From Geotalea uraniireducens Rf4 (GTDB lineage Bacteria; Desulfobacterota; Desulfuromonadia; Geobacterales; Geobacteraceae): 32,000 bases of DNA. Positions 1 through 32,000 of this stretch are shown one piece after another. The translations under genes were made by a program, and so were the position numbers. Position 1 is the stretch's first letter, and the number at the start of each line of letters is the position of its first letter. The stretch spans positions 1,830,001-1,862,000 of the forward strand of contig NC_009483.1 in NCBI RefSeq assembly GCF_000016745.1, in the 5' to 3' direction. Below the pieces are notes generated by a model. The model was not told where the DNA came from. It did not search any database and saw nothing but the letters and a program-made list of their open reading frames with translations.

Positions 1-274
1 CGACCACTTCGCCGTTTCGGGCGATGATGGTGACCCTGGCCTTCACCTCTTTGCCGATAGCTGCGGCAATTGCCTGGGCATCATGGTACAGGTCTCCACC
101 TTCTCTTCCTGCCATGAGCGCCGCCATCCTGGTTTCGTTTGTCAGATTGTCCTTTATTTCGGCCAGCAAATAGTCTTCAAGGGCGTTATTAAGGTAGCCG
201 TAAAGTATGCCGCCCATGAGCAACACCAGGCAGAGGTATGAGACCATCAGTTTCCAGCGAAAGGTGACCTTCAT
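1..274 (-). CDS. Sensor histidine kinase, N-terminal fragment (PhoR-like partner of the adjacent regulator); continues beyond the left edge
   Basis: Absent from the ORF track because there is no stop in the window. The minus-strand ATG at 274-272 overlaps the TAA stop of the upstream regulator by one base (TAATG). The translation MKVTFRWKLMVSYLCLVLLMGGILYGYLNNALEDYLLAEIKDNL... begins with a hydrophobic membrane segment. It lies directly downstream of an OmpR/PhoB-type regulator. Confidence 0.6.
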   Translation of the reverse strand, partial: MKVTFRWKLMVSYLCLVLLMGGILYGYLNNALEDYLLAEIKDNLTNETRMAALMAGREGGDLYHDAQAIAAAIGKEVKARVTIIARNGEVV

Positions 275-12804: not shown

Positions 12805-14332
12805 ATTAATACTACTCCGACACATATAGTTCTTTAACATTTCAATATTCGCACCAGAAGCTTTGCAATCTGATGCCTGATGTCAGGCAAGGACGGCATG
12901 CCTTTGAGTCGTTGCCTCCGCCTCCATCGCTCAGAGGAACGAAGAGAACAGCAACGATGGCGCCACTTTTCCAGGTGTTTGGTTTTCAGAACAAAGCGTC
13001 GTTGGCCAGTGTCGATTTTTTCTGAATCCAGTTGCTCCGCGCTGTCGCACTCTTCTGTTTTTTTTGCTGCAAACGCAACAGTGTCAGATAGCCATATGCC
13101 AGGGACGTCAGGAGCACATGTCGATGCCATCCGCTCCATGAGCGCCCTTCATGGTGATCAAGGCCAAGCTCTTCCTTTAGCTGTTGATAGCCATGCTCTA
13201 TCCAATAACGTTCATGGTAGAGGCGGGCAAGGTCAATCGTTGCCAGATGCTGCGGCATATTGCTGAAGAAATAGCGAAGCTCGTATCCACCCAGGTTCAG
13301 GGGGCGGCGCTCTATCAGGAGCCAGACTTGTTCATGATGATTGCCCTGCCGCCATCCGTGAGCCGGCCACACTCTCATTGAGACGGCCTCTGCAACAAGT
13401 GGCTTGTCCTTGGAATTGAGCCTCAATTCTAGCCGTTGCCATGCATCATCGGCAATGCTTTCGCCCAGTACCGACAGCTTGACCGGTTCGGGGTTTGTGG
13501 AGACTACCTTAGGGCGAGTTCGTGGACGCCCTCGCTTATGCTCTTTGACTGGCGCAATTTCAAAGACCGGCTCCTCAAGAAATACCGGGGTGTTGGAGTA
13601 AGCTCCCAGGATGTAATTTTCACTGCGGGACTCAAGCTCCTTGCGAAACTCCGGAATGTTGCCATACCAGCTGTCAGCAAGGACTGCACGATGGGGAACA
13701 TTGTCTTTTCGGGCCAGGTCAACAAAATCAAGTGCCATGCGCCATTTTGACTTATGGTGCACTGACTCCGGCATGTGAGCCTTTTTACGCTTTGCGGTGC
13801 AATCATCATTTTGCTGATCCCAGGATTCCGGGACGAACAGTTCCATGGCATATGGCCAGGCGACATCTCTGCCGACATACGTCATGCTTACGCCAATCTG
13901 ACAGTTGTCAGTCTTGCCTGATGCACCGCAGTATTGCCGGGCAACACATACACTGTCGTACCCTTTCTTAGGGAACCCGGTATCATCAAGAACCAGGATC
14001 CCCTGCGGGTCGGAAGTGACGTCAAGCATGGAACGGCGGAATTGCTCAGCAACAAGTTGATCGTCCCATTTGGCAGTCGAAAGGAGGCGCTGCATACTTC
14101 GTTCAGATGCGTTTACCTTCTCTGACATGGGTTCAACTGACTTGCGCTCACCGTCCATGAGCAGGCCGGCCAAGTAACATTCTGCCAGTTCACGGCTCTC
14201 TGACCGATGGAAATAGCCATAATAGGGAGCCATATATTCTTCGATGCCGGGGAAAACGATCTCTGTTGTCATTCGCAGAGATTATCACATGAAACAGATT
14301 ATATCAAGCTATGTGTCGGAGTAGTATTAATA
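12805..14332 (-). mobile_element. IS701-family insertion sequence, apparently intact
   Basis: The perfect 22-bp inverted repeats ATTAATACTACTCCGACACATA (12805-12826) and TATGTGTCGGAGTAGTATTAAT (14310-14331) enclose a single 428-aa transposase gene. TTGA occurs immediately outside both ends (12801-12804 and 14333-14336, if the right end is set at 14332). Confidence 0.85.
12986..14272 (-). CDS. IS701-family (COG5659-like) DDE transposase
   Basis: 428-aa ORF. The N-terminus is FHRSESRELAECYLAGLLMDGERKSVEPMSEKV...MQRLLSTAKWDD. The catalytic-region contexts VLDDTGFPKKGYDSVCVARQYCGASGKTDNCQIGVS and AVLADSWYG, and the C-terminal YHERYWIEHGYQQLKEELGLDHHEGRSWSGWHRH, are typical of this family. Confidence 0.85.
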   Translation of the reverse strand: MTTEIVFPGIEEYMAPYYGYFHRSESRELAECYLAGLLMDGERKSVEPMSEKVNASERSMQRLLSTAKWDDQLVAEQFRRSMLDVTSDPQGILVLDDTGFPKKGYDSVCVARQYCGASGKTDNCQIGVSMTYVGRDVAWPYAMELFVPESWDQQNDDCTAKRKKAHMPESVHHKSKWRMALDFVDLARKDNVPHRAVLADSWYGNIPEFRKELESRSENYILGAYSNTPVFLEEPVFEIAPVKEHKRGRPRTRPKVVSTNPEPVKLSVLGESIADDAWQRLELRLNSKDKPLVAEAVSMRVWPAHGWRQGNHHEQVWLLIERRPLNLGGYELRYFFSNMPQHLATIDLARLYHERYWIEHGYQQLKEELGLDHHEGRSWSGWHRHVLLTSLAYGYLTLLRLQQKKQKSATARSNWIQKKSTLANDALF

Positions 14333-17606: not shown

Positions 17607-17702
17607 GTCGAATCTCCTTTCCCTGTGTGTTGCGTTAAAACTGCTTCGATACATCTGCCAATATAAATTTGTAAAACACGATTATAAATAAACTATTATA
17701 AC

Positions 17703-17720
17703 CTTAACGTCGATGTCAAG
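17703..17720 (-). promoter_or_regulatory. Palindromic operator overlapping a TTGACA -35 element, fadL promoter copy
   Basis: The minus strand reads TAC-CTTGACATCGACGTTAAG, a 16/18 match to the copy at 31635-31652. It lies about 97 nt upstream of the fadL ATG and points toward fadL. Confidence 0.6.
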
Positions 17721-18059
17721 TATAAAATATAACATGGTTTCGGAAAAAGTAAATTGCAAGCAATTAACTGCGATTCGCATGAAGGTTTTTAGTGTGATTA
17801 TTATATGCGGTGGTGGCGTAAGGCAAAAAATTATTAAAATTGGATGGTTATGGGTGTATATGGTATGATTGGGTTGGTCCGGAAGGTGGCAAAAGTTAAA
17901 ACATGATTATATTGTAAAATTAAAATTTGAATTTTGGGCGGGAATAGCCTGGATATTTTTCTGCTCAACGCTGCAAAAAACTTCCCCATGCCGCATGGAA
18001 CACAGATTAACCGGAAGTAGAATCGAAAAACAAATACGCAAAAATGAAAAGATATTTTA

Positions 18060-18089
18060 CTTGACATGAACGTCAAGGATAGATATTAT
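18060..18089 (+). promoter_or_regulatory. Palindromic operator plus sigma70 promoter of the fad operon
   Basis: CTTGACATGAACGTCAAG (18060-18077) has perfect 6-bp arms CTTGAC/GTCAAG. The -35 TTGACA is at 18061-18066, followed by a 17-nt spacer and the -10 TATTAT at 18084-18089. Confidence 0.65.
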
Positions 18090-18129
18090 TGCTTTAAAAT
18101 TATTTGCATCCCTTCGGAGGATGACGCTT

Positions 18130-19941
18130 ATGCAGGATATCCCTTTTTTGTCAGTTCCCGACATGTTGAGGCAAAATGCCGCCAGGTTTCAGGGGAAGCT
18201 TGCCCTGAAGTACCGCAAGCAGGGAAAGTTTGTCACGCTGAGTTACGCGGAGTTTTATGAACGGGCTCTGATGGCCGCCCGTGGCCTGAAGAAGTGCAAT
18301 GTGAAACCGGGGGAGAGGGTTGCGATCCTCTCAGAGAACCGTGCCGGGTGGGTTATTGCCGATATGGGGATCCTCACTGTCGGCGGCGTGACCGTGCCGA
18401 TCTATCCGACGAACACACCCGAGCAGATCGAGTACGTGCTGAATCATTCGGAAGCCCGTATTGTTTTTGTTTCCAGCAAATTTCAGTACTCAAAGCTTCT
18501 CAGGATACGGGAAACAATTCCTAAAGTGGAATTGGTGGTTTCGTTCGAGCGTTTTCTGGGTGAGCCGGAGTTGCCGGTCTGCACCTTCTATCAGCTCTCG
18601 GAAATTGACCTCCCGGTTACCGAAAGTGAAAAAAAGCAGCTTGAGGCCGGTATTGACTGCATCGGCCCCACTGACCTCCTTACCCTGATTTACACCTCCG
18701 GCACAACCGGCGTGCCGAAGGGGGTGCCGCTTACCCACCGCAATATTCTCTTCGATGCCTTTTATACCAGCAGAAAAGCAGTGGTGCTTCGCGAATGCGA
18801 GGTTCACCTCAGCTTCCTCCCCTTGAGCCACGTTCTTGAAAGAACAATCGGCTATTACATGATGATCATGAACGGCTCGATGATGGCTTTTGCCGACAGT
18901 ATTGAAAAGGTCCCGGAAAACATGATGGAAGTCAAACCAACAGTGATGGTAAGCGTGCCGCGGCTCTTCGAAAAGATCTACTCGCGCATTTTCGAAAACG
19001 TGCATCAGATGTCTGTTGTGAAAAGGAAACTGTTCCATTGGGCGATTGAGGTAGGCAAGAAGTATGTGGAAGCAAGGTATATCGAGAAGAGAACTTCTCC
19101 CTTACTGGCATTTAAGTACAACGTGGCAGACAGGCTCGTCTTCGGCAAATTGCGGGAGCGGTTCGGCGGGAACATGAGGCTGTTCTGCTCGGGTGGCGCG
19201 CCGCTTGACAAGACGATCAACGAATTCTTCTGGATTATCGGCCTTCCTATCCTGGAAGGGTATGGTCTGACCGAGACCAGTCCGGCGGTCAGCTTTAACA
19301 ATTTTGATCAGGTCCGGTTCGGCTCCGTGGGAACAGCGCTTGAGCACACGGAAATAAAAACGGCCGAGGATGGCGAACTGCTGATCCGGGGGCCGCAGAT
19401 CATGACCGGTTATTACAAGGAACCGGCGGCAACCGGTGAGTCGTTGCAGGATGGCTGGTTCAAAACGGGAGATATCGGCTACATCGAGAACGGTTTTGTC
19501 TATATAACCGACCGCAAAAAAGAGCTGATAATCACAGCAGGGGGGAAAAATATAGCCCCCCAGCCCCTGGAGAACGAACTCAAGCTGGACAAGTACATTT
19601 CCTCGGCATTTGTATATGGTGACCGGAAGCCTTACCTTACCGCCCTGCTCGTACCAAATATGGAGCGGTTGCTGGAATTTGCCAGGGAAAAGCATATCGA
19701 TTATTACGATATGGATGACCTGGTCATCCACGAGCCGGTCACCAGGCTGATGGAGCAGAGGCTCGCCGAAATCAACAGCCATCTGCCCCAGTATGAGAGC
19801 ATAAAGAAGTTTGTGCTGCTCCCACGCGACTTTTCCATTGACGGGGGGGAGCTTACCCCGACCCTCAAGCTGAGGCGGAAGGTTATTTACGAGAAATACA
19901 AGGATAAGATCGAAGGAATGTATGTCGAGAACGGGAATTGA
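18130..19941 (+). CDS. Long-chain acyl-CoA synthetase (AMP-forming, COG1022/FAA1-like)
   Basis: About 603 aa. GGAGG abuts the first ATG (18121), so ATG 18130 is the better-spaced start. The AMP-binding signature is YTSGTTGVPKG, with additional GYGLTETS, FKTGD and the C-terminal LTPTLKLRRK. Confidence 0.9.
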   Translation: MQDIPFLSVPDMLRQNAARFQGKLALKYRKQGKFVTLSYAEFYERALMAARGLKKCNVKPGERVAILSENRAGWVIADMGILTVGGVTVPIYPTNTPEQIEYVLNHSEARIVFVSSKFQYSKLLRIRETIPKVELVVSFERFLGEPELPVCTFYQLSEIDLPVTESEKKQLEAGIDCIGPTDLLTLIYTSGTTGVPKGVPLTHRNILFDAFYTSRKAVVLRECEVHLSFLPLSHVLERTIGYYMMIMNGSMMAFADSIEKVPENMMEVKPTVMVSVPRLFEKIYSRIFENVHQMSVVKRKLFHWAIEVGKKYVEARYIEKRTSPLLAFKYNVADRLVFGKLRERFGGNMRLFCSGGAPLDKTINEFFWIIGLPILEGYGLTETSPAVSFNNFDQVRFGSVGTALEHTEIKTAEDGELLIRGPQIMTGYYKEPAATGESLQDGWFKTGDIGYIENGFVYITDRKKELIITAGGKNIAPQPLENELKLDKYISSAFVYGDRKPYLTALLVPNMERLLEFAREKHIDYYDMDDLVIHEPVTRLMEQRLAEINSHLPQYESIKKFVLLPRDFSIDGGELTPTLKLRRKVIYEKYKDKIEGMYVENGN

Positions 19942-19976
19942 TCCCGTTGCCGGCAATAAAAAAACGGAGGAAAACT

Positions 19977-22364
19977 ATGAAACAGATCAATAAGGCGGCC
20001 GTGCTGGGGTCAGGTGTTATGGGAGCGACCATTGCAGCCCATCTGGCCAATGCCGGAATTCAGGTGCTGCTCCTTGACATAGTGCCGAGGGAGCCGAGCG
20101 ATGCGGAGACGGCGGCAGGTCTTACCCTGGCTGACCGCGCTGTCCGGAACAGGATCGCCCAGGCCGGTCTGGACGGACTTCTCAAGATGAAGCCGGCGCC
20201 GTTCTTTATCCCCGGCTATGCATCGTACATCGAGGTGGGCAACTTCGAGGACGACATGGCGCGGCTCAAGGAGTGCGACTGGGTCATCGAAGTGGTCATC
20301 GAGAACATGGAGATCAAGAAGAAGCTCTTTAGCGAAAAGGTGGCCCCCAACATGAAAGATGGGGCTGTTCTCTCCACCAATACCAGCGGCCTTTCCGTTA
20401 ACGAGATGGCGGAAAGTCTGCCGGACAACATCAGGAAGAACTTCCTGGTTACCCATTTCTTCAATCCGCCCCGCTACATGCGTTTGCTGGAGATCGTTTC
20501 CTGCCGCTACACCGATCCGGCTGTTGCGGAAAAGATGGCGGCGTTCATCGGCAAACGGCTGGGAAAGGGGATTGTCTACGCCAAGGACACACCCAACTTC
20601 ATCGCCAACCGGATCGGCGTGTATGCCATCTGCAACTGTGTGCGGAACATGATGGCGATGGAGATGACCGTCGAGGAGGTCGACAAGATTGCCGGTCCGG
20701 CAACCGCCAGGCCAAAGAGCGCGGCTTTTCGCACGGCGGATCTGGTGGGCATCGACACACTGCAGCATGTGGCGAACAACTCCTACGAGCTCCTGGTGAA
20801 CGACGAGGAGCGCGAGCTCTTCCGTTTCCCTGATTTTATCCGGGAAATGGTCGGGAAGGGGCTCCTGGGGAATAAGAGCAAGCAGGGTTTCTTCAAGAAA
20901 GCCAAGGGGGAAAAGTGTTCGACCATTTTCTTTTACGACTACAAGAGCGGTGAGTACGTGGAGGCGCAAAATCCGAAATTTGCCTCCGTGGAGGCGGCAA
21001 AATCCATCGACGATCCGGCCAAGCGTCTCCAGGCCGTTATCACCGGCACGGACAAGGCTGCCCAGTTTGCCTGGAAAAACATGCGGGACACCCTTATCTA
21101 CACATTCAACCGGATCCCGGAAATTGCCGACGATATTGTCAATATCGACAACGCCATGAAGTGGGGGTTCAACTGGGAACTCGGCCCCTTCGAAATGCTG
21201 GACGCCATCGGTGTCGGCTATTTCGTGGAGCGGGCCGAAAAGGACGGGGCGCCGGTTCCAGCCGGACTCAAGGCGGTTGAACAGTTCTATAAATTTGCCG
21301 ACGGCAAAAACTACTATTACAGCCTTGCTGACAAAAGCTATCGGGAAATAGCCCGGAAGGCCGGCCATGTAAACCTCTCTGTCCTCAAGAGAAGCGGCGG
21401 GATGGTGGAGAAAAATAGCGGCGCCTCCGTGGTGGATCTGGGGGACGGGGTCTTCTGCCTGGAATTCCATACCAAGATGAACGCCATCGGCAACGAGATC
21501 CTTTCCATGGTCCACAAAGGGATCAAGCGGTCGGAAGAAGAAGGGGTGGGACTCGTTATCGCCAACGAGGGTGGGCTGTTTTCTGCCGGCGCCAACCTGA
21601 TGCTGCTGGTGATGGGGATTGCCGAAGGGGCCTATGACGAGATCGCCATGACGGTGAAAAACTTCCAAAAGGCGATGATGGCAATCAAATACTCCAAGAT
21701 CCCCGTGGTTGCGGCTCCCCACAACCTGACCATGGGTGGCGGATGCGAGACCTGTCTCCATGCCGACGCGATGAATCCATATGCGGAAACCTACATGGGA
21801 TTGGTGGAGATCGGGGTAGGGCTTCTGCCGGCCGGCGGGGGAACCAAGGAGATGGCCATCCGCGCCATTAAACTGGCCGAAGAGTATGACATGGACCCTA
21901 CTCCTTTCATCTTCAAGAACTTTATGAATATCGCCATGGCCAAGGTAAGCATGTCTGCGGCCGAACTCAACCAGATGGGCTTCATGCGCCAAGGCGACGC
22001 CGTTGCCATGGATATGGATACGCGGATCTTTGACGCCAAGCTGAAGGTCATTGCCCTGGCTGCCAACTACCGCCCGGGCAGGCCGCTGATCGACCTGAAG
22101 GCGCCCGGTCGGGGGATTGCCGCCAGCATCAAGTCCCAGCTCTGGAACATGCGCATGGGGGGCTTCATCTCCGAGTACGATGAGTTCCTGGGCAAGACCA
22201 TTGCCGACGTCATCACCGGCGGCGATGTCCCGGCCGGGACCCTGATCACCGAAGACTACCTCCTGGAGTTGGAGCGTGAGGCGTTTGTCCGGCTCTGCGG
22301 GCAGAAAAAAACCCTCGACAGGATTCAGAACATGCTGAAGAAGGGTAAAACGCTGCGCAATTAG
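19977..22364 (+). CDS. fadN: Bifunctional 3-hydroxyacyl-CoA dehydrogenase / enoyl-CoA hydratase, N-terminal dehydrogenase order (Bacillus FadN-like)
   Basis: 795 aa counted from ATG 19977, with GGAGGA upstream. The N-terminal Rossmann motif is AAVLGSGVMGATIAAHLANAG with 3HCDH contexts (HFFNPPRYM). The C-terminal third is crotonase-like (GLFSAGANL...GGGCE...EIGVGLLPAGGGT). Confidence 0.9.
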   Translation: MKQINKAAVLGSGVMGATIAAHLANAGIQVLLLDIVPREPSDAETAAGLTLADRAVRNRIAQAGLDGLLKMKPAPFFIPGYASYIEVGNFEDDMARLKECDWVIEVVIENMEIKKKLFSEKVAPNMKDGAVLSTNTSGLSVNEMAESLPDNIRKNFLVTHFFNPPRYMRLLEIVSCRYTDPAVAEKMAAFIGKRLGKGIVYAKDTPNFIANRIGVYAICNCVRNMMAMEMTVEEVDKIAGPATARPKSAAFRTADLVGIDTLQHVANNSYELLVNDEERELFRFPDFIREMVGKGLLGNKSKQGFFKKAKGEKCSTIFFYDYKSGEYVEAQNPKFASVEAAKSIDDPAKRLQAVITGTDKAAQFAWKNMRDTLIYTFNRIPEIADDIVNIDNAMKWGFNWELGPFEMLDAIGVGYFVERAEKDGAPVPAGLKAVEQFYKFADGKNYYYSLADKSYREIARKAGHVNLSVLKRSGGMVEKNSGASVVDLGDGVFCLEFHTKMNAIGNEILSMVHKGIKRSEEEGVGLVIANEGGLFSAGANLMLLVMGIAEGAYDEIAMTVKNFQKAMMAIKYSKIPVVAAPHNLTMGGGCETCLHADAMNPYAETYMGLVEIGVGLLPAGGGTKEMAIRAIKLAEEYDMDPTPFIFKNFMNIAMAKVSMSAAELNQMGFMRQGDAVAMDMDTRIFDAKLKVIALAANYRPGRPLIDLKAPGRGIAASIKSQLWNMRMGGFISEYDEFLGKTIADVITGGDVPAGTLITEDYLLELEREAFVRLCGQKKTLDRIQNMLKKGKTLRN

Positions 22365-22375
22365 GGTCGCCACAT

Positions 22376-22477
22376 GTAGGGGCAGACCCGCGTGTCTGCC
22401 CTGTTTGCGGTGCAAATGTCCGGCAAGGGCGTACACATAGGTATAAGTGCAGGGCGCACACATAGGTGCGCCCCTAC
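22376..22477. repeat. REP-like composite palindromic element inside the fad operon
   Basis: Outer arms GTAGGGGC (22376-22383) and GCCCCTAC (22470-22477). Inner hairpins are GGGCAGAC/GTCTGCCC (22380-22401) and GGGCGCAC/GTGCGCCC (22452-22473). There is also a direct repeat, GGGCGTACACATAGGT / GGGCGCACACATAGGT. Confidence 0.7.
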
Positions 22478-22501
22478 AAATGAATGACTTGGAGGAAATC
22501 G

Positions 22502-23674
22502 ATGAGAAACGCATATATTTTAGCTGCCTTTCGTACCCCCGGTTGTAAGGCTAAAAAGGGGAAATTCAAGGATGTGCGGCCTGACGACCTGGCTGCGGTA
22601 GCAATCAGAGGCCTTTTGGAGAAAACAGGAATAGATCCCCTCGCTGTTGAAGACATCATCATGGGGTGTGCATTTCCGGAAGGGGAGCAGGGGATGAACA
22701 TGGCAAGGGTGGCGGCCATGAAGGCCGGCGTCCCTTACCAGGTGCCGGCCCAGACCGTCAACCGGTTCTGCTCTTCCGGATTGCAGAGCATTGCTTCTGC
22801 TGCTGAGCGAATCATGGCCGGTTTCAGTGACTGCATCATTGCCGGCGGCTCGGAAAGCATGAGCATGGTTCCCATGGGGGGCAATAAATACAGTGCCAAC
22901 CCTGGGCTGGTAGCGTCCTGGCCGGAGTCGTTCGCCTCCATGGGGATCACCGCCGAATTGGTTGCCGAGCAGTACACGGTTTCCCGCGAGGAGCAGGATT
23001 TCTTTGCTGCGGAGAGCCATAGAAAGGCAGCCGCAGCCATAGCGCAGGGGAAATTCGCAGAGGAAATCCTGCCGGTTGAAGTGGAAAGCTGCGCTCTGGT
23101 GAACGGCAAGATGAAACGGAGTAAGGAGTTGGTCACCGTTGATGACGGTGTGCGTGGTGAAACGACCCGGCATGGGCTCGGCAAGCTGAAGCCGGCGTTC
23201 AGCGCCACCGGGACGGTAACGGCAGGGAACTCATCCCAGATGACCGACGGCGCCGCAGCGGTGTTGGTGGTGTCGGAAGAGTTCCTGAAAAAATGCGGTA
23301 AAGTGCCCATTGGCCGCTTTGTTTCGTTCGCAGTGCGCGGTGTGCCGCCGGAAATCATGGGAATCGGCCCCATCGAGGCGATCCCGGCAGCCCTCAAGCT
23401 GGCGGGGCTCAAGCTGGAGGATATCGGACTGTACGAGCTGAACGAAGCGTTTGCCGCCCAGTCCATTGCCTGCGTGAAAACCTTGGGGATCGATCCGGCC
23501 CGGGTTAACGTCAACGGCGGCGCCATAGCCCTCGGCCACCCCTTGGGGTGCACCGGCGCAAAACTGACCACGTCGCTCCTTCATGAGATGCAGCGCAGCA
23601 ATACCCGCTATGGCGTCGTTTCCATGTGCATCGGCGGCGGGATGGGCGCAGCGGGAATTTTCGAGAAGATGTAA
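22502..23674 (+). CDS. fadA: Acetyl-CoA C-acyltransferase (3-ketoacyl-CoA thiolase)
   Basis: 390 aa from ATG 22502, with GGAGGA upstream. The acyl-Cys context is VNRFCSSGLQ. Other thiolase contexts are NEAFAAQ, NGGAIALGHPLGCTGA and MCIGGGMGAAGIFE. Confidence 0.95.
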   Translation: MRNAYILAAFRTPGCKAKKGKFKDVRPDDLAAVAIRGLLEKTGIDPLAVEDIIMGCAFPEGEQGMNMARVAAMKAGVPYQVPAQTVNRFCSSGLQSIASAAERIMAGFSDCIIAGGSESMSMVPMGGNKYSANPGLVASWPESFASMGITAELVAEQYTVSREEQDFFAAESHRKAAAAIAQGKFAEEILPVEVESCALVNGKMKRSKELVTVDDGVRGETTRHGLGKLKPAFSATGTVTAGNSSQMTDGAAAVLVVSEEFLKKCGKVPIGRFVSFAVRGVPPEIMGIGPIEAIPAALKLAGLKLEDIGLYELNEAFAAQSIACVKTLGIDPARVNVNGGAIALGHPLGCTGAKLTTSLLHEMQRSNTRYGVVSMCIGGGMGAAGIFEKM

Positions 23675-23706
23675 AAAATATAACTCTTATTTTACGAGGT
23701 GAGATC

Positions 23707-25485
23707 ATGGCAGCAAAAATTTTCAAAGGCGCCGAGTACCTGATAACGGAAGTGTTGAAGGATGAAGTCTTCACACCGGAGGATTTTACCGACGAACAGA
23801 AGCAGATAGCAGAAACAACCGAGCAGTTTGTCGTCAAGGAAGTTGCGCCCCACCGGGAAGAGATCGAGCACCAAAACTTCGACCTGGTGGTTGAGCTCAT
23901 GCAAAAGTGCGGCGAGCTGGGTCTACTGATGATCGACGCGCCGGAAGAGTACGGCGGACTCGAATTGGACAAAGCAACCAGCATGCTGGCGGCCGAAAAA
24001 ATCTCCTCAGCCGGCTCCTTTTCCGTTGCCTATTCGGCCCATACCGGTATCGGCACGCTGCCGCTTGTCTATTACGGGACAACGGAACAGAAGGAGAAAT
24101 ATCTCGGCAAGATAATCAGCGGCGAGTGGGTTGCCGCCTACTGCCTGACGGAGCCCGATTCGGGGAGTGACGCCCTGGGGGCCAAGACCACCGCCACCCT
24201 CTCTGCGGACGGAAAATATTACCTCCTGAACGGCACCAAGCAGTTCATCACCAATGGCAGCTTCGCCAACCTCTACACCATTTTCGCCAAGATCGACAAG
24301 GAGCATTTCACCGCCTTTCTCGTCGAGCGGACCACCGAAGGTCTGTCCGTCGGAGCCGAGGAGCAGAAGCTCGGGATCAAAGGCTCTTCGACCACCCAGA
24401 TCATCCTGGAAAATGCCAAGGTGCCGGTGGAAAATGTGCTGGGAGAAATCGGCAAGGGGCATAAGATCGCCTTCAACGTACTCAACGTGGGGCGCTTCAA
24501 GCTGGGCGCCGGGGTGACCGGCGCAGCCAAGTACGCACTGGCCGAGGGGATCAGGTACGCCAATATGCGCAAGCAGTTCGGAGTACCGATCGGTACGTTC
24601 GGCGCCATCAAGGAAAAGATCGCCAATCTGTCCGCTGCCGTTTTTGCCGCGGAATCCCTCGTCTACCGCCTGGCCGGGCTGATTGACCATAAGCTGGCAA
24701 CCATTCCCAAGGATACCTCCAATTACTACGATGTGTACCAGAAAGGTATAGAGGAGTACGCCATCGAGTGTGCCATTGCCAAGGTCTTTTGTAGCGAGGT
24801 GCTGTCCGACGTGGTGGACGAGGTCGTCCAGATCCATGGCGGCTACGGTTTCATCCAGGAGTATCCGGCGGAGGGTTTTTACCGTGATGAGAGGATCAAC
24901 CGGATCTTCGAGGGGACCAACGAGATCAACCGCCTCCTCATACCGGGAATACTGCTCGGCAGGGCAATGAAGGGGGAGATCCCGCTGCAGCGTGAAGTGA
25001 TGAAGGCCCTTGAGGCGCTGATGACCCCTTCCTTCGATGAAATCGATGACTCCGTGCCCTTTGCTGCGGAAAAGGTCCTGCTCCAGAACCTGAAAAAGGC
25101 CTTCCTCGTCCTTGCCGGTTCGGCCGTGCAGAAGTATATGGATAAAATCAAGGATGAGCAGGAGATCCTCATGGCTGTGGCAGATGTGGCCATCAATATC
25201 TTCGCCCTGGAAAGCGCCGTTCTCCGTGCCGAGAAGATCCTCGGAACGCTGAGCGACGGCAAAAAAACTTCTGTCACGGCAGCCGTAAAGGTGTTGGCCT
25301 TTGATGCCGTCGAGAAGATTTCCACGGCGGCGAAACGGGCTGCCTACTACATTGAAGAAGGGGACAATCTTACCATGGTGCTCGGCGGGATCAGAAGGTT
25401 CACCAAGTACGATGCATCAGGGCTTCTCCAGGCCAAACGGCACTTGGCTGATGTTGCTCTTGAAGCGGAAAAATATATATTTTAA
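23707..25485 (+). CDS. fadE: Long acyl-CoA dehydrogenase with C-terminal extension (Bacillus FadE/YusJ-like)
   Basis: 592 aa from ATG 23707, with GAGGTGA upstream. ACAD contexts are AAYCLTEPDSGSDA, NGTKQFITNG, QIHGGYGFIQEYPAEGFYRDERINRIFEGTNEI, plus a helical extension of about 180 aa. Confidence 0.9.
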   Translation: MAAKIFKGAEYLITEVLKDEVFTPEDFTDEQKQIAETTEQFVVKEVAPHREEIEHQNFDLVVELMQKCGELGLLMIDAPEEYGGLELDKATSMLAAEKISSAGSFSVAYSAHTGIGTLPLVYYGTTEQKEKYLGKIISGEWVAAYCLTEPDSGSDALGAKTTATLSADGKYYLLNGTKQFITNGSFANLYTIFAKIDKEHFTAFLVERTTEGLSVGAEEQKLGIKGSSTTQIILENAKVPVENVLGEIGKGHKIAFNVLNVGRFKLGAGVTGAAKYALAEGIRYANMRKQFGVPIGTFGAIKEKIANLSAAVFAAESLVYRLAGLIDHKLATIPKDTSNYYDVYQKGIEEYAIECAIAKVFCSEVLSDVVDEVVQIHGGYGFIQEYPAEGFYRDERINRIFEGTNEINRLLIPGILLGRAMKGEIPLQREVMKALEALMTPSFDEIDDSVPFAAEKVLLQNLKKAFLVLAGSAVQKYMDKIKDEQEILMAVADVAINIFALESAVLRAEKILGTLSDGKKTSVTAAVKVLAFDAVEKISTAAKRAAYYIEEGDNLTMVLGGIRRFTKYDASGLLQAKRHLADVALEAEKYIF

Positions 25486-25560
25486 TCAATTCGAAGATGA
25501 AACCCGTTGCAAACCGATTGCCGGCTCGCAAGATATTGCCTGCCAAGTGAGAGACGACAG

Positions 25561-26502
25561 ATGCGACAACACACGATCAACACCCCTTACATGGTAGGTG
25601 AAGCCCATTTCTACTCCACGGAACTGAATGGGGACCTGGTTCTTTTCGACACCGGTCCCTCCACTCCGGAGGCCCTTGCCTACCTGCAAACGGTCGTTGA
25701 TCTCAGGCGTCTGAAATACCTCTTTATCACCCACTGCCATGTGGACCATTACGGACTGGCCGATTTTATCGCCAAAAACAGCAGCGCCGAAGTTTTCCTC
25801 TCCCGCAAGGATGCCATCAAATTCCGGCGTCACCATGAGCGCCTGGAGCATATCAGGGAGCTTCTCCGCTCATATGGCTATGATCATGGTTTTGTCGACC
25901 GCTTGCAGGCTGTCTATACCGACAAGAAAATATTTCCCGCTTTTCCCGAGAAATACACTCTCGTCGAGGAGTCGGACGTTCCCCGCAAGCTGGGGATCGA
26001 CCATATCGGCTGTCCCGGCCATTCCCAGAGCGATCTGGTCTATTTGTGCGGCAAATACGCCGTTACCGGCGATGTCTTGCTGCGCAACATCTTTCAGGCG
26101 CCGCTTCTCGATGTCGACCTGGAGACATTCGACGGGCGGTTCCGCAACTACGACGCATACTGCGCGTCACTCCTTGAATTGCAGTCAGTGCGCGGCTGCG
26201 AGATACTTCCCGGCCATCGGCAGTATGTGGAGAGCCTGGACGAAACCATCCTTTTTTACGCCGGGAAACTGATGGAGCGGGCGGCGCAGGTGAAGAGGCT
26301 GGAGGGGGTTGCCTTGGTAAGCGATGTGATCGCGAAGCTCTTTGGCGGGGCACTCGACGACCCGTTCATCACTTACCTCAAAGTGTCGGAAATCGTATTC
26401 ATGCGAGACTTTCTCGCAGAGCCGGAGAAGTTGAAAAATTCCCTGGAGCAGATCGGCCTGTTTGATCTGGTATGCGACGTCTACGCTGCAGCAGTCGGAT
26501 AG
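25561..26502 (+). CDS. MBL-fold metallo-hydrolase
   Basis: The HxHxDH motif is ITHCHVDHYG, with downstream ligand contexts GCPGHSQSD and the HR of ILPGHRQY. The ORF-track start at 25507 is a TTG; ATG 25561 is preferred, although its SD is weak. Confidence 0.75.
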   Translation: MRQHTINTPYMVGEAHFYSTELNGDLVLFDTGPSTPEALAYLQTVVDLRRLKYLFITHCHVDHYGLADFIAKNSSAEVFLSRKDAIKFRRHHERLEHIRELLRSYGYDHGFVDRLQAVYTDKKIFPAFPEKYTLVEESDVPRKLGIDHIGCPGHSQSDLVYLCGKYAVTGDVLLRNIFQAPLLDVDLETFDGRFRNYDAYCASLLELQSVRGCEILPGHRQYVESLDETILFYAGKLMERAAQVKRLEGVALVSDVIAKLFGGALDDPFITYLKVSEIVFMRDFLAEPEKLKNSLEQIGLFDLVCDVYAAAVG

Positions 26503-26555
26503 CGGGCATGCGGGTCGGCCCCGATGATGCCAATCTGGAAATCTGGAGAAAAACA

Positions 26556-28559
26556 ATGATCGATCAACTCTTTGAACCACTCGTCATTAACGGGCTCAAC
26601 GTAAAAAACCGGATATACATGCCGGCCATGCATCTGCAGATGTGCAGAAACTTCGAGGTAACAGACCAATTGGTGGAATTCTACACGGCAAGGGCCTGCG
26701 GGGGGGCCGGGATTATCACGGTCGGTTATGCGACCGTCGATGAGCTGTCAGGCAACCCTACCAACATCGGCGCCCACCGTGACGAGTACATTCCCGGTCT
26801 GGCGCGGCTCGCCAGGGCCATCAGGGAAAACGGCGCTGCTGCCTCAGTGCAGTTGAACCATGCGGGTCGCTACAATCATTCCCTTTTTCTTGGTGGGAAA
26901 CAGCCGGTGGCTCCTTCGGCTATCCCGTCCCGGTTGACCAGAGAGACTCCCCATGCTCTCGATGCAGCGGGGATTGCGAGGATAATCGCCGGGTTTGCCC
27001 AGGCTGCCCTCAGGGTGAAGACCGCAGGCTTCGACGCCGTGGAAATCCTGGCGGGGACCGGCTATCTGATCAGCGAATTTCTCTCCGAGGTGACGAATAA
27101 GCGGATTGACGATTATGGCGGCTCCCTGGAGAACCGGATGCGCTTCGGGCTCGAAGTCCTGCGTGCGGTCCGGGAATCGGTCGGACCGGCGTTCCCCCTT
27201 GTCGTGCGCATGAACGGCAACGATTTCATGAAGGGGGGGACCGGCCGGCGGGAGCTGCAGGAGTTCGCCCGCTGTCTCGTTGCGGCGGGGACCGATGCCA
27301 TCTGCGTCAATGTGGGGTGGCACGAGGCGCTGGTGCCGCAGATAGTCACCAAGGTCCCCCGCGGTGTCTTTGCCTACCTGGCCCGGGGTGTCAAGGAGGC
27401 GGTACATGTGCCGGTCATTGCCAGCCACCGGATCAATGACCCGGCGGTGGCCCGCGACTTGATCGCGGATGGCATGTGCGACATGGTGGCCATGGGGCGT
27501 GCTCTCATAGCTGACCCCGCTCTTCCGGAGAAGACCATGCGGGGGAAGGAACGGGAAATCGTCCACTGCGTGGCCTGCGGCCAGGGGTGCTTTGACAACC
27601 TTTTCAAGATGAAACCGGTGGAGTGCCTCTGCAACCCGCGGGCGGGCCATGAGCGGGAGACCGTGATCGAGAGGGCAGCGAAGAGCCTGAAGGTGATGGT
27701 TGTGGGAGGTGGGGCCGCGGGTATGACCGCAGCGGCGGCCGCTGCCGATGCAGGCCACCAGGTGACGCTCTTCGAGCGGAGCGGGCGGCTCGGCGGGCAG
27801 CTGCATCTTGCAGGAGCTCCGCCGGGGCGGGAGGAGTTTTTGGAACTGGCGCGGGATCTGGCCTGCCAGCTGGACCTGAGAAAGGTCCGGGTGGTGCTCA
27901 ACCAGGAGGTCGACGAAGCAGTGATCGAGCGGGAACAGCCTGACGCGGTAATCCTGGCCACCGGCGGGATGCCGGTTACTCCGCCGATTCCCGGCGCAAA
28001 CCTCCCCAACGTGGTGCAGGCCTGGGATATCCTGGCCGGCAAGGTACGTACCGGCAAAAGGGTGGCCATTGTCGGTGGCGGGGCAGTGGGGGTCGAGACA
28101 GCGCTCCTCCTGGCGGAAAAGGGGACCCTTTCCGGCGAAGAGCTGAAGTTTCTCCTCGTCCATGGAGCGGAAGCTGTCGAGGATCTTGGCCGGCTGGCTG
28201 TCCGGGGGACAAAGGAAGTGATCCTCGTGGAGATGCTTGATGGACTGGGCAACAACTTTGGCAAATCCACCCGGTGGGGGATGCTGATGGACGTGGAGCG
28301 TTACGGGGTAATTGCCGGGACAGCCGTTAAGGTACTGGAAATTACCGCCGCCGGGCTCAGGGTGGAGCGGGATGGTAACGTGGAAGACATCGCCGCCGAC
28401 ACGGTTGTCCTGGCGGTCGGCACCCGGCCGTACAACCCGTTGCAGGAAATCCTGGCGAAAAGGGGCATCCCCCACAAGACGGCCGGCGATGCGCTGCAAG
28501 CAGCCATGGTGTTCGATGCGGTGCATCAGGGATTCGCGGCGGGGCGGGAGATTGTTTAA
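26556..28559 (+). CDS. fadH: 2,4-dienoyl-CoA reductase-like flavoenzyme (OYE-type FMN domain, 4Fe-4S, FAD/NAD(P) domain)
   Basis: 667 aa from ATG 26556, with GGAGA upstream. The OYE N-terminus is LNVKNRIYMPAMH...VQLNHAGR. The Fe-S motif is CVACGQGCFDNLFKMKPVECLCNP. There are two dinucleotide folds, VVGGGAAGMTAA and IVGGGAVGVETA. Confidence 0.85.
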   Translation: MIDQLFEPLVINGLNVKNRIYMPAMHLQMCRNFEVTDQLVEFYTARACGGAGIITVGYATVDELSGNPTNIGAHRDEYIPGLARLARAIRENGAAASVQLNHAGRYNHSLFLGGKQPVAPSAIPSRLTRETPHALDAAGIARIIAGFAQAALRVKTAGFDAVEILAGTGYLISEFLSEVTNKRIDDYGGSLENRMRFGLEVLRAVRESVGPAFPLVVRMNGNDFMKGGTGRRELQEFARCLVAAGTDAICVNVGWHEALVPQIVTKVPRGVFAYLARGVKEAVHVPVIASHRINDPAVARDLIADGMCDMVAMGRALIADPALPEKTMRGKEREIVHCVACGQGCFDNLFKMKPVECLCNPRAGHERETVIERAAKSLKVMVVGGGAAGMTAAAAAADAGHQVTLFERSGRLGGQLHLAGAPPGREEFLELARDLACQLDLRKVRVVLNQEVDEAVIEREQPDAVILATGGMPVTPPIPGANLPNVVQAWDILAGKVRTGKRVAIVGGGAVGVETALLLAEKGTLSGEELKFLLVHGAEAVEDLGRLAVRGTKEVILVEMLDGLGNNFGKSTRWGMLMDVERYGVIAGTAVKVLEITAAGLRVERDGNVEDIAADTVVLAVGTRPYNPLQEILAKRGIPHKTAGDALQAAMVFDAVHQGFAAGREIV

Positions 28560-28604
28560 TCAAGAGCTGATATTTGCACACTTAAAGAAAAGAGGTCTGA
28601 TGCT

Positions 28605-29162
28605 ATGCGAAAACTAGTTGTTGTGCTCCTGCTCATGCTGGCAGCAGTCAATGCCCATGCCCTCGAAGTGGCCGGAGTCCACCTGGAAACGGCGGTTATT
28701 GTCAACAATCACCCCCTGAAGCTGAACGGCTACGGCATCCGCAAAAAGTTTTTTGTCAAGGTCTATATCGGCTCCCTCTACACCGCCAAAGCGGTGGCCA
28801 AGGCCGACGAGGCGCTGAGCGAACCGGGGGACAAGCTCATCAGGATGAACTTCCTCCATAGCAAGGTGGACAAGGGGAAAATCACCGAAGCCTTCAGCGA
28901 GGGGTTTGCCGCTAATTCTCCTCAACTGGCCGGTTCCGCCGAGGTGAAGAAGTTCCTCGCCTTTTTCACCTCGGATTTCAGCAAGGGCGATACGGTTGAC
29001 CTCTCCCTGGGGAGCGATGGGAGGGTGGTTGCCGTCCATAACGGCAAGGTGCTGGGAACGATCACCTCAAAAAGGCTGGCAAAGGGGATTCTCGCCATTT
29101 ATCTGGGTGAGAAGCCGGCTGATGAAGCCCTGAAAAAGGGGATGCTCGGGAGGGAGTCCTGA
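28605..29162 (+). CDS. Secreted chalcone-isomerase-fold (CHI-like/fatty-acid-binding-protein-like) protein
   Basis: 185-aa ORF with SD AAGAGG. The Sec signal is MRKLVVVLLLMLAAVNAHA-LE. The family pattern is VAGVHLE..V.V..HPLKLNGYGIRKKFFVKVYIGSLY...IYLGEKPADEALKKGMLG. Confidence 0.7.
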   Translation: MRKLVVVLLLMLAAVNAHALEVAGVHLETAVIVNNHPLKLNGYGIRKKFFVKVYIGSLYTAKAVAKADEALSEPGDKLIRMNFLHSKVDKGKITEAFSEGFAANSPQLAGSAEVKKFLAFFTSDFSKGDTVDLSLGSDGRVVAVHNGKVLGTITSKRLAKGILAIYLGEKPADEALKKGMLGRES

Positions 29163-30076
29163 GAGCGGAATCCTGCTACATCCGGGTCAATGGCGTTGAT
29201 ACCCTGCATCTCCGGCGCCTCTATGAAGATCCGCAGGGGCCGCCCGTCTTCATGCTGCATGGCGCCATCGAAAACGGCCGGATCTTCTACTCGGACTCGG
29301 GCCGTGGACTGGCTCCCTATCTGGCCGGGCAAGGTTACGATGTCTATGTTGCCGATCTGCGGGGCCGCGGCGGAAGCACCCCGGCGATCAGCCGCATGTC
29401 GCGCTTCGGCCAGACAGAGGCCATTACCGAGGACATTCCGGCATTCGTCAACCATATCATCGAGCGCCGCGGTCTGATTCCCCAGCACTGGATAGCTCAT
29501 TCATGGGGTGGGGTGCTCCTTTCCTCCTATCTGGCGCGATTTGCCGACCATCGCGACCTGGTCCGGTCAGCCGTCTATTTCGGCAGCAAACGGATGGTGA
29601 GGGTATGGAACTTCCACCGTCTTTTGAAGGTAGACCTGGTATGGAACGGGTTGTGCCATCTGATTTCCGACCTGGCCGGCTATCTCCCTGCCCGCAGGTT
29701 GGGTATCGGCTCGGACAGCGAGACGCTCAAGTCCCATTGCCAGAGCAGCGAGTGGGTAAAGAAGGATGCCTGGGTGGATTCCGACGACGGCTTCGATTAC
29801 GGCGCCGCTATCGGGCAGGTGCAGCTGCCGCCGATCTGGTACCTGGCCGCGGAGAGGGACCACGCCCTGGGACATCCGCGCGATGTGGCGGATTTCCGGC
29901 GGTCGGCAGGAGTGCAGGAAAGCAGCTATACTGTACTCAGCCGCAGGAACGGCAACCTTCACGACTATGATCACATAAACATGCTGACCCACCCGGATGC
30001 ACCGGCAGACCATTTCCCGTTAATCGTCCACTGGCTGAAAGAGCATGAAACAGCTGCCGGTGCGGCAAGGAACTAG
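29159..30076 (+). CDS. Alpha/beta-fold serine hydrolase (esterase/lipase-like); start codon uncertain
   Basis: The first ATG (29252) falls at ..PPVF-MLHG, inside the conserved N-terminal strands. The frame is open from 29126 and encodes CYIRVNGVDTLHLRRLYEDPQGPPVF upstream. The only plausible initiator is CTG 29159, with GGAGG 5 nt upstream and overlapping the upstream TGA. The nucleophile elbow is AHSWGG, with late Asp/His contexts. Confidence 0.6.
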   Translation: MRAESCYIRVNGVDTLHLRRLYEDPQGPPVFMLHGAIENGRIFYSDSGRGLAPYLAGQGYDVYVADLRGRGGSTPAISRMSRFGQTEAITEDIPAFVNHIIERRGLIPQHWIAHSWGGVLLSSYLARFADHRDLVRSAVYFGSKRMVRVWNFHRLLKVDLVWNGLCHLISDLAGYLPARRLGIGSDSETLKSHCQSSEWVKKDAWVDSDDGFDYGAAIGQVQLPPIWYLAAERDHALGHPRDVADFRRSAGVQESSYTVLSRRNGNLHDYDHINMLTHPDAPADHFPLIVHWLKEHETAAGAARN

Positions 30077-30110
30077 CCGGCTTTAATCAGGAAACAAGGA
30101 GAAAAACGCC

Positions 30111-30896
30111 ATGAGCGCTGCCAGCACAAATGAACAGATTCAAACCGACCTGCGGGACGGTATTTTTACCATTTGCTTTAACCGACCGGAGAAGAAGAAC
30201 GCCCTGAACCTGGCCATGTATGCGGCGTTGGTTGATTCGCTGGGAGAAGCGGACCGGGATGATGCGGTACGGGTGGTTCTCCTGACCGGAAATGGGGAAT
30301 GCTTCACCAGCGGCAACGACCTGGCGGATTTCATGACCGCACCGCCCATCAGCGCGGAGAGTCCGGTCATGCAGTTTCTTGCTGCCATAAGCCGGTTCCG
30401 CAAACCGCTCGTTGCGGCGGTCATCGGCTCGGCGGTCGGTGTCGGGGTGACGATGCTTCTCCATTGTGACCTTGTTTACGCCGGAACAGGCGCTGTCCTG
30501 CAGCTGCCATTCGTTAACCTCGGGCTCTGCCCGGAAGCCGGTTCGACCCTGCTCTTTCCCCGGCTCATGGGGCACCAGCGGGCAGCGGAACTGCTCCTGC
30601 TCGGAGAACCCTTTTCAGCCGAGAAAGCCTGTTCAGTCGGCATCGTCAACGGGGTTTTCCCGGATGTGGAGGTCCTGGCTGCCGCCCGGACCAAGGCCTT
30701 ACAGCTGGCGGCCCGACCGGCCGCAGCAGTGCGCCTGGCCAAAGCGTTGCTGAAAAAGGAGTATGCGGCATCCTTGGAAGAAACCATTGCCGACGAAGGG
30801 GCTCACTTTGTCAAGCGGTTGATGTCACCGGAGGCGGGTGAAGCGCTCCGGGCCTTCATGGAGCGGCGTCAGCCCGATTTCTCGCGATTCAAGTAA
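30111..30896 (+). CDS. Crotonase-superfamily enoyl-CoA hydratase/isomerase (possibly delta3,delta2-enoyl-CoA isomerase-like)
   Basis: 261-aa ORF with SD AAGGAG. It has the crotonase fold pattern FNRPEKKNAL...VVLLTGNGECFTSGNDLADF...AAVIGSAVGVGVTM. The SGNDL motif resembles ECI2-type isomerases. Confidence 0.85.
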   Translation: MSAASTNEQIQTDLRDGIFTICFNRPEKKNALNLAMYAALVDSLGEADRDDAVRVVLLTGNGECFTSGNDLADFMTAPPISAESPVMQFLAAISRFRKPLVAAVIGSAVGVGVTMLLHCDLVYAGTGAVLQLPFVNLGLCPEAGSTLLFPRLMGHQRAAELLLLGEPFSAEKACSVGIVNGVFPDVEVLAAARTKALQLAARPAAAVRLAKALLKKEYAASLEETIADEGAHFVKRLMSPEAGEALRAFMERRQPDFSRFK

Positions 30897-31527: not shown

Positions 31528-31634
31528 ACTTCACCTCTATGTTAAATTAGGCTTTTATACAACACAAATTCCGAAAGCTTGTCAAGAAATTAAAAAATAT
31601 TTTATTGCATGCGACTATTTTACAAATACTTGTA

Positions 31635-31664
31635 CTTGACATGAACGTTAAGATAAAGTATAAC
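31635..31664 (+). promoter_or_regulatory. Palindromic operator plus sigma70 promoter in the MerR / Fe-S oxidoreductase divergent region
   Basis: CTTGACATGAACGTTAAG at 31635-31652. The -35 TTGACA is at 31636-31641, followed by a 17-nt spacer and the -10 TATAAC at 31659-31664. It lies 33 nt upstream of ATG 31697 and about 108 nt upstream of the MerR start. Confidence 0.6.
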
Positions 31665-31696: not shown

Positions 31697-32000
31697 ATGG
31701 ACGCAGCGAGAGAAATATACTGGAACGTAGGGCACGGGGTGATAGGGCCGATGTACCTCTTTTCTTTGATCGCCATCGCCCTCTGTGGATGGGGTTTTTA
31801 CAAAAGGACACCGATTTACCGCCAGGGGAAGCCGCTAGACCGCCTGGACCGGCTGCCGGAGAAGATTGCCTTTATGGCAAAGAGCGTACTGGCCCAGACT
31901 CGGGTTCTGCGGGTCGTCAACCCCGGGATTTTGCATACCCTCTTTTTCTGGGGGTTCGGTATCCTGTTCATCGGCACCCTGCTCGTCATGGTCCAGGCTG
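31697..32000 (+). CDS. Membrane-anchored oxidoreductase, N-terminal fragment (likely Fe-S/heterodisulfide-reductase-like enzyme of the ETF-linked type); continues beyond the right edge
   Basis: Absent from the ORF track because there is no stop in the window. The translation is MDAAREIYWNVGHGVIGPMYLFSLIAIALCGWGFYKRTPIYRQGKPLDRLDRLPEKIAFMAKSVLAQTRVLRVVNPGILHTLFFWGFGILFIGTLLVMVQA. It contains two clear transmembrane helices. The functional call rests on recollection of similar N-termini next to etf genes in Geobacter/Syntrophus. Confidence 0.5.
   Translation, partial: MDAAREIYWNVGHGVIGPMYLFSLIAIALCGWGFYKRTPIYRQGKPLDRLDRLPEKIAFMAKSVLAQTRVLRVVNPGILHTLFFWGFGILFIGTLLVMVQA

Follow-up and report, generated by a model that had tools for sequence, protein, structure and literature searches.

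Putative operators of a LiuR-type MerR-family regulator at fatty-acid and electron-transfer genes of Geotalea uraniireducens Rf4

The closest described relatives of the system reported here are the MerR-family LiuR regulons of branched-chain amino-acid and acyl-CoA catabolism, which have already been described in Proteobacteria (PMC3223726 and PMC5343134, both citing Kazakov et al. 2009). LiuR itself is described as a MerR-family repressor in PMC3223726. According to the supplement to PMC5343134, LiuR regulons comprise liuR itself, etfAB, thiolases, acyl-CoA dehydrogenases (ACADs) and occasionally fadA, fadB and fadL, and this survey of Proteobacteria counts 0 LiuR regulons in the Desulfuromonadales. 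The same paper assigns the known fatty-acid regulators FadR, PsrA and FadP to the GntR and TetR families. Here we analyze a stretch of 32,000 nucleotides of Geotalea uraniireducens Rf4 (NC_009483.1, positions 1,830,001 to 1,862,000 of the forward strand; hereafter the window), in which three copies of one palindrome stand before a fadL-type gene, a nine-gene beta-oxidation operon and a membrane Fe-S oxidoreductase gene. With a probability of about 0.75, judged from sequence, the three sites would be the operators of a dimer of the adjacent 131-aa LiuR-type MerR protein, which would block the promoters of these three transcription units. The system would be a LiuR-type regulon, centred on fatty-acid and electron-transfer genes, in lineages new to it, rather than a new kind of system. 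The finding is less new than an earlier reading of the window from its letters alone (the sequence-only reading) had assumed, because LiuR regulons of acyl-CoA genes are already known in Proteobacteria. Our literature searches on Geobacter and LiuR, or on a MerR-family fatty-acid repressor, found nothing relevant, and the G. metallireducens genome paper makes no mention of MerR or of the motif.

The sites, their targets and the regulator are located as follows.

17703..17720, minus strand: putative operator at the fadL promoter, CTTGACATCGACGTTAAG; exact pattern match, 31.4 bits under the site model
18060..18077, plus strand: putative operator at the promoter of the nine-gene operon, CTTGACATGAACGTCAAG; exact match, 37.5 bits
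31635..31652, plus strand: putative operator at the Fe-S oxidoreductase promoter, CTTGACATGAACGTTAAG; exact match, 36.8 bits
16338..17654, minus strand: FadL/TodX-family outer-membrane transporter gene, target 1 (Pfam Toluene_X, 1.2e-64)
18121..30896, plus strand: nine-gene operon, target 2 (assigned by domain matches)
31697..32000, plus strand: 5' part of the membrane Fe-S oxidoreductase gene, target 3 (the full gene, 661 aa, is in the longer contig L001)
31132..31527, minus strand: MerR-family regulator, 131 aa, LiuR-like (Pfam MerR_1, MerR and MerR-DNA-bind)

The likeness to LiuR concerns the protein, the box and the targets. Both regulators are small MerR-family proteins, ~130 aa long, that lack a sensor domain, and the box, as we read it here from loci with liu gene content, is a 16-bp 7-2-7 palindrome with ACGT cores. 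Other papers name an 'ILV box' but print no sequence for it. The targets are ACADs, thiolases, hydratases, acyl-CoA synthetases (ACSs) and etfAB, and the regulator is, here probably, autoregulated. In the liu locus of Vibrio campbellii (L205), the MerR gene is followed by genes for an ACAD, a carboxyltransferase, a hydratase and HMG-CoA lyase, and is divergent from thiolase, aldehyde dehydrogenase and ACAD genes, with the boxes TTGACGTTTACGTAAG and TTTACGTAAACGTAAA. The box of the Marinobacter liu locus (L207) reads TTTACGTTTACGTAAA. The boxes of Vibrio, Marinobacter and Azospirillum can be written TTKACGT-NN-ACGTMAA, whereas those of the window read TTGACAT-NN-ACGTYAA; the left half-site is fixed here as TTGACA, so that it doubles as a -35 element. 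The liu genes for methylcrotonyl-CoA carboxylase and HMG-CoA lyase are absent from the window and from related loci. The core regulon consists instead of the uptake and beta-oxidation of long-chain and unsaturated fatty acids together with a membrane Fe-S oxidoreductase typical of anaerobes, and the hosts are Geobacterales, Nitrospirota and Spirochaetota.

A closer functional parallel is found in Azospirillum sp. B510 (pAB510c), where a merR-thiolase-fadB-ACAD cluster, with a long ACAD, has TTTACGTAAACGTCAG upstream. There too, a LiuR-like factor would govern beta-oxidation rather than leucine catabolism. LiuR orthologues are said, in work of Kazakov from 2009, to control fatty-acid degradation genes in alphaproteobacteria. 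The Azospirillum regulator heads its operon, whereas that of the window is convergent with the end of the operon and divergent from the electron-transfer gene, and the phyla differ. A further match in Sphingomonas (H41) was not used; its MerR gene does not lie beside acyl-CoA genes. FadR (GntR), PsrA and FadP (both TetR) do the same job from palindromic operators at fadL, fadD, fadBA, fadE and etf promoters, according to PMC5343134. They differ in protein family and in operator sequence, and the window has no such gene.

The three sites and their promoters

All three copies match the 18-bp pattern CTTGACATNNACGTYAAG without a mismatch. They are located 37-48 nt 5' of a start codon, each facing its own gene (48 nt for the fadL ATG and 43 nt for the operon ATG at 18121), and all are intergenic in a window that is 83% coding. 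When up to three mismatches to the pattern were allowed, 8 strand-matches at 4 places were found, against 0.39 expected from shuffled sequences; 8 matches were reached in 0 of 100 shuffles. The fourth place, 2674-2691 (3 mismatches), lies inside an AMP-binding open reading frame (ORF; 1573-3231) and scores 8.7 bits. Since the top scores of shuffles go up to 9.4 bits, this place was attributed to chance. In the site model, which has 22 nt and was built from 85 related sites, the next-best independent place in the window after the three copies reaches 9.1 bits. Beyond ~30 nt on either side of the sites, the sequences of the copies are unrelated. The spacer between fadL and the ACS gene holds, besides the two operators, only short repeat pairs at chance level, and an Rfam search of the whole window gave no match.

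The sequence-only reading had placed three copies of the motif at these positions, with the sequences given here. Its statement that the 32 kb holds no other full copy is borne out by the scores (31-37 bits against 9.1). Each copy does contain TTGACA on the strand facing the downstream gene, as it claimed. It was mistaken in having TAC precede each copy: TA precedes the 18-mer, and TAC precedes the TTGACA hexamer.

This hexamer appears to serve as the -35 element of each promoter. It is found at 17719-17714 (minus strand) in the fadL operator, at 18061-18066 in that of the nine-gene operon and at 31636-31641 in that of the Fe-S oxidoreductase gene. Candidate -10 elements were assigned to two of the promoters.

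18084..18089, plus strand: candidate -10 TATTAT of the nine-gene operon; 17-bp spacer, 11/12 positions matched in the promoter scan
31659-31664, plus strand: candidate -10 TATAAC of the Fe-S oxidoreductase gene; 17-bp spacer

The -10 element of fadL is ambiguous, with AATAGT, ATAGTT or TAGTTT at 16, 17 or 18 bp. The 17-bp spacing is thus seen in two of the three promoters of the window, and it recurs in a logo of 85 unique sites. In this logo, T25 (76/85) and A26 (80/85) stand exactly 17 bp past TTGACA, on the gene side only, and an A at position 37, 7 nt beyond the -10 region, is present in 54 of the 85 sites. The mirror positions of T25, A26 and A37 are not conserved. The one-sided TA and A37 look like a -10 element and a transcription start, and therefore support the view that the left half-site doubles as a -35 element; the claim that the operator sits on the -35, made before this analysis, draws its support from the same positions. 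The double role would also explain why the oriented hexamer has an A in TTGACA where symmetry would give a G. Relative to the start so placed, the site spans ~-40 to -14 with its centre near -27.5. The dyad centre falls 2.5 bp past the -35 hexamer and ~6 bp off the centre of the spacer, and the site covers the -35 element itself.

The palindrome extends beyond the pattern used to find it. In the 85-site logo the unconstrained flanks are symmetric (T-1/A20, t-3/A22 and T-4/a23) and lengthen the palindrome to ~28 bp, TTnTA-CTTGACAT-NN-ACGTYAAG-TAnAA, as expected for a dimeric protein. At the fadL operator the extended palindrome runs over ~17698-17725. A search with the outer half-sites alone (CTTRAC-N6-GTYAAG) gave 28 matches in 1.29 Mb, against ~0.3 estimated by chance, and the free centre of these 28 was AT..AC in 16 and AT..GC in 4.

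The MerR-family protein and the leader of its gene

The regulator is 100% identical to a protein recorded for Geotalea uraniireducens. In its predicted structure (pLDDT 87), a winged helix-turn-helix is followed by a single long coiled-coil helix. The modelled helices are H11-17 and H22-30, followed by the wing and H84-127, and the chain ends after the coiled coil. The nearest PDB folds all belong to the MerR family, among them HiNmlR, described as 'lacking the sensor domain'. Over 77 aa of the DNA-binding domain the protein shares 53% identity with the LiuR of the Vibrio liu locus, and over 68 aa it shares 49% with a Thiolinea homologue; identity to plasmid-borne metal sensors is at most 39%. 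None of the curated NCBIfam models reached its cut-off with this protein, the metal-sensor models falling far below; NCBIfam holds no LiuR model. A tblastn search of plasmids with the protein was dominated by metal-sensing MerR/CadR genes below 40% identity and was uninformative.

In several loci of the Desulfuromonadales type, a second MerR paralogue (38-40% identity) lies directly upstream of the merR orthologue.

L024, 9331-9741: MerR paralogue upstream of the merR orthologue
L027, 9505-9909: the same
L030, 9260-9676: the same
L075, 9355-9765: the same

The merR gene of the window carries an operator-like element of its own.

31529..31546, minus strand: TTTAACATAGAGGTGAAG, a weak operator-like element of the merR leader that merges with the Shine-Dalgarno sequence
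31580..31585, minus strand: putative merR -35 element (TTGACA), read from sequence

Across 69 unique orthologous loci (L005-L077), the element TA-ATTGAC-N6-GTGAAG-TA is fixed at -21 to +1 of the merR ATG. It has the form of an operator whose right half merges into the Shine-Dalgarno sequence and which ends at the A of the ATG. It scores at least 0 bits in ~47 of the 69 loci, against 9e-5 of random 22-mers. Ahead of it, the orthologues show a conserved TTGACA, a spacer of 17-18 bp and TATAT, and the element would cover ~+1 to +20 of the merR transcript. It is probably an autoregulatory site, and its conservation in the 69 loci suggests negative autoregulation. The element was also considered as an RNA hairpin, a reading that was rejected; its folding energies are no better than those of shuffled sequences.

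In this genome the -10 element of merR is ambiguous, with TGTATA at 18 bp or TATAAA at 20 bp. The best candidate in the merR promoter (31554-31585, minus strand) is TATAAA, and its 20-bp distance is a MerR-like spacing, against the 17-18 bp of the orthologues. The spacer of this promoter holds no palindrome.

Taken together, the regulator of the three sites is supported to be the adjacent MerR-family protein, by synteny, by the element in its own leader and by the LiuR-type DNA-binding domain and box. In the mechanism that we propose, a dimer would recognize the 7-2-7 palindrome TTGACAT-NN-ACGTYAA within a 28-bp symmetric footprint. The left half-site would act as the consensus -35 element, and the bound regulator would block RNA polymerase and keep off fadL, the ACS/beta-oxidation operon and the Fe-S oxidoreductase gene. 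Repression in other genomes would extend to etfB, ACAD and additional thiolase genes. The DNA would probably be released once a pathway intermediate, such as an acyl-CoA, accumulates. The weaker copy at ~+1 to +20 of merR, fused to the ribosome-binding site, would provide negative autoregulation. We infer physical binding by the MerR protein, and repression rather than activation; the latter because the site takes up the -35 element together with most of the spacer, and a second one lies over the +1 of merR. Acyl-CoA would be the effector by analogy with FadR, PsrA and FadP.

The same protein might act on the same sites as a classical MerR-type switch, which stays bound and activates, or both represses and activates, through a ligand-driven reshaping of the DNA. 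The regulator belongs to the MerR family by sequence and by fold, and it shares with the activators MerR, CueR, ZntR, SoxR and BmrR a palindrome inside a sigma-70 promoter. The sites of MerR, CueR and BmrR lie inside the promoter. Moreover, the -10 elements are only moderate: logo positions 25-30 average ~4/6, and the T at the last position is present in only 35 of the 85 sites. The geometry of the promoters speaks for a different mode of action. Classical MerR activation deals with a spacer of 19-20 bp, in which the dyad is centred and which it corrects, whereas the spacer is 17 bp here and the dyad is shifted onto a -35 element of perfect consensus. The copy near the +1 of merR fits a roadblock and not activation. 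The window protein also has neither metal-binding cysteines nor a ligand domain, one or the other of which the classical activators have. For these reasons, and since LiuR is described as a repressor (PMC3223726), we consider a MerR-type switch unlikely. Promoter occlusion is the simplest reading because the site sits on the -35 element, the spacer is 17 bp, a copy lies at the +1 of merR, and the related LiuR is described as a repressor.

Conservation of the sites and weighing of the evidence

A genome scan that used an alignment of the MerR protein gave 80 loci. Orthologues of merR with 60-87% identity are present in genomes of Nitrospirota, Geobacteraceae/Desulfuromonadales, Geomonas and Spirochaetota (Rectinemataceae). 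In almost every case, merR and the same beta-oxidation operon, whose gene content and order are kept in three phyla, converge at the operon's 3' end; the gene from which merR diverges is often that of the Fe-S oxidoreductase, and in some genomes it is etfB. Sites with at most 2 mismatches were found 39-49 nt before the ATG of Fe-S oxidoreductase, ACS, FadL and EtfB genes; further genes with a site at this distance are a FadB gene heading an operon and a second thiolase gene. Under the site model, sites precede every one of the 4 testable ACS orthologues in the merR-anchored loci and 14 of the 20 orthologues of the Fe-S oxidoreductase gene; correcting one wrongly called ORF, in L021, raises the latter count to 15, for a total of 19-20 of 24 first genes. 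The fadL orthologues of L112, L011, L099 and L147 share the site at their promoters. At operon-internal genes the count is 0/188 (thiolase 0/17, ACAD 0/25, metallo-beta-lactamase-fold (MBL) protein 0/25, reductase 0/26, enoyl-CoA hydratase (ECH) 0/43, hydrolase 0/20 and chalcone-isomerase-like (CHI-like) protein 0/32). The motif is thus conserved upstream of orthologous genes in related genomes, at the first genes of the units and in three phyla. Nor is it equally frequent in coding regions; it is absent from internal gene starts and is not spread through coding sequence. The sequence-only reading had proposed a regulon for fatty-acid uptake, activation, beta-oxidation and electron transfer and had tied it to the MerR protein, and every element of that proposal that could be tested on sequence held.

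Where the Fe-S oxidoreductase gene does not adjoin merR, etfB is the divergent gene behind the operator, and the operator before etfB links ETF to the same regulon.

L014, 9895: etfB-side operator
L064, 8352: etfB-side operator
L067, 1465: etfB-side operator
L068, 9932: etfB-side operator
L073, 3162: etfB-side operator
L145: also an etfB-side operator

In L006 and L009, merR has the Fe-S oxidoreductase gene downstream on its own strand, and the two may be co-transcribed.

Metagenome contigs were scanned independently of the regulator with the exact pattern TACTTGACATNNACGTYAAG, which occurred in at least 120 stretches, of which 80 loci with 81 sites were listed. Among these listed matches, 45 of the 81 sites stand just upstream of ACAD, ACS, Fe-S oxidoreductase, FadL or EtfB genes, mostly at the same short distance from the ATG: 22 before orthologues of the 619-aa ACAD, 12 before ACS, 7 before Fe-S oxidoreductase, 3 before FadL and 1 before EtfB genes. 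A further 12 listed sites are at contig ends, and 24 have other or unresolved downstream genes. Some of these 24 are inside genes for DNA polymerase, a restriction enzyme or a flavodiiron protein, which fits the ~15 chance hits estimated for this 19-base pattern, and some are wrong-frame ORF calls in GC-rich contigs. A merR homologue is also present in 13 of the listed loci.

One large metagenomic group has a near-identical promoter-operator sequence, ttcgtaCTTGACATTAACGTTAAGtagaagtatgaa, before the ACAD orthologue, with a merR of 56-59% identity nearby.

L089, L091, L094, L095, L108, L111, L118, L121-L127 and others: members of the ttcgtaCTTGACATTAACGTTAAGtagaagtatgaa group

Could the sites do without a regulator, as a shared strong promoter or as chance or duplicated sequence? 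Each does contain a consensus -35 and a plausible -10 element. Conservation across phyla extends to the right half ACGTYAAG and to the TA/TA and T/A flanks, none of which is a sigma-70 element. Chance would have given 0.39 matches, the flanks past ~30 nt are unrelated, and the sites are absent at the starts of the 188 internal genes. This explanation is thus highly improbable.

Another possible interpretation is that a factor encoded elsewhere, of CRP/FNR, TetR or GntR type, binds the palindrome and that the MerR gene is a mere neighbour. TTGAC-N6-GTCAA does have the 5-6-5 outline of CRP-type sites, and the families of FadR, PsrA and FadP named above would suit such a factor. In CRP/FNR sites (5-N4/6-5) the centre is not conserved and lies near -41.5 or further upstream, whereas here the central ACGT and AT positions are conserved and the centre is near -27.5. 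No TetR, GntR or CRP gene was found among the ORFs of the cluster or of the window, whose only other regulator is of OmpR type and 17 kb away. The merR gene, moreover, travels with the sites across three phyla, and LiuR loci have the same type of box beside a homologous DNA-binding domain. We consider a factor from elsewhere very unlikely.

Several observations weigh against repression by the adjacent MerR protein. Classical MerR proteins activate from within the promoter, so that membership of the family is no proof of repression. The regulator has neither a sensor domain nor a cysteine, which leaves the route of acyl-CoA sensing unexplained, and its C-terminal half cannot be aligned with LiuR. 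The leader copy of the window scores 3.8-8.3 bits, which on score alone is within the range of chance. Fe-S oxidoreductase genes without a good site occur in L006, L008, L009, L059 and L061. In addition, the site model and the logo are partly circular, the 18 core positions having been constrained by the search patterns; the evidence free of this circularity consists of the unconstrained flanks and the search with the outer half-sites only.

A bolder version of the proposal is that the LiuR-type protein, having neither sensor domain nor cysteine, senses long-chain acyl-CoA through a novel site and represses from an operator/-35 cassette that moved, together with a module of anaerobic beta-oxidation and membrane Fe-S oxidoreductase/ETF, between Desulfobacterota, Nitrospirota and Spirochaetota. 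We regard this version as doubtful. If it were true, the regulon would mark how electrons pass from acyl-CoA dehydrogenases to the quinone pool in anaerobes that oxidize fatty acids, a route that is still poorly defined.

It is worth noting that the regulator of G. uraniireducens is nearer to orthologues from Nitrospirota genome bins (75-87%) than to those of other Geobacteraceae (65-72%; L005-L012 versus L017-L077). The Fe-S oxidoreductase and the ACAD show only a slight or overlapping trend toward Nitrospirota. Horizontal transfer of the cluster, or mis-binning, may account for the Nitrospirota-like regulator.

The locus provides a concrete candidate pair of regulator and operator for fatty-acid catabolism in metal reducers of the Geobacter type and in uncultured Nitrospirota and Spirochaetota, and the site model offers a means of listing regulon members in genomes and metagenomes. 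Co-regulation connects the genes of the membrane Fe-S oxidoreductase and of ETF with beta-oxidation, which helps to assign the electron-transfer path of anaerobes that oxidize fatty acids. The MerR-family protein would apparently serve as a plain promoter-blocking repressor. The general understanding of such systems is unchanged, as this is a fairly ordinary local switch in a group where it had not been catalogued.

Other genes of the locus

The gene identities given by the sequence-only reading (fadL, the acyl-CoA synthetase/beta-oxidation operon, the Fe-S oxidoreductase and MerR) are upheld by domain matches. The FadL/TodX-family porin scores well under the FadL equivalog cut-off. Genes 1-4 of the operon encode an AMP-ligase (the ACS), a FadB-like 3-hydroxyacyl-CoA dehydrogenase/hydratase, a thiolase and the 619-aa ACAD; genes 5-7 encode an MBL-fold protein, a flavoprotein like 2,4-dienoyl-CoA reductase and a CHI-like protein; genes 8-9 encode an alpha/beta-hydrolase and an ECH. 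In the FadB-like protein (window 19938-22364), the dehydrogenase domain comes first and the hydratase domain second. The MBL-fold, CHI-like and alpha/beta-hydrolase proteins (25507-26502 and 28605-30076) are operon members kept across phyla. Within the operon, the counts of internal promoters and terminators are no higher than expected from shuffles. The full Fe-S oxidoreductase gene has a Nitrate_red_gam (cytochrome-b-like) domain together with 4Fe-4S and CCG domains.

The MerR protein had been called the only regulator of the locus. This holds for the fad cluster and not for the window, which contains one other regulator gene.

274-951, minus strand: OmpR-type response regulator (receiver domain and Trans_reg_C)

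The base composition of the cluster shows no anomaly and gives no signal of horizontal transfer. A transposase gene of the IS701 family is located at 12986-14272 on the minus strand, ~2 kb from fadL.

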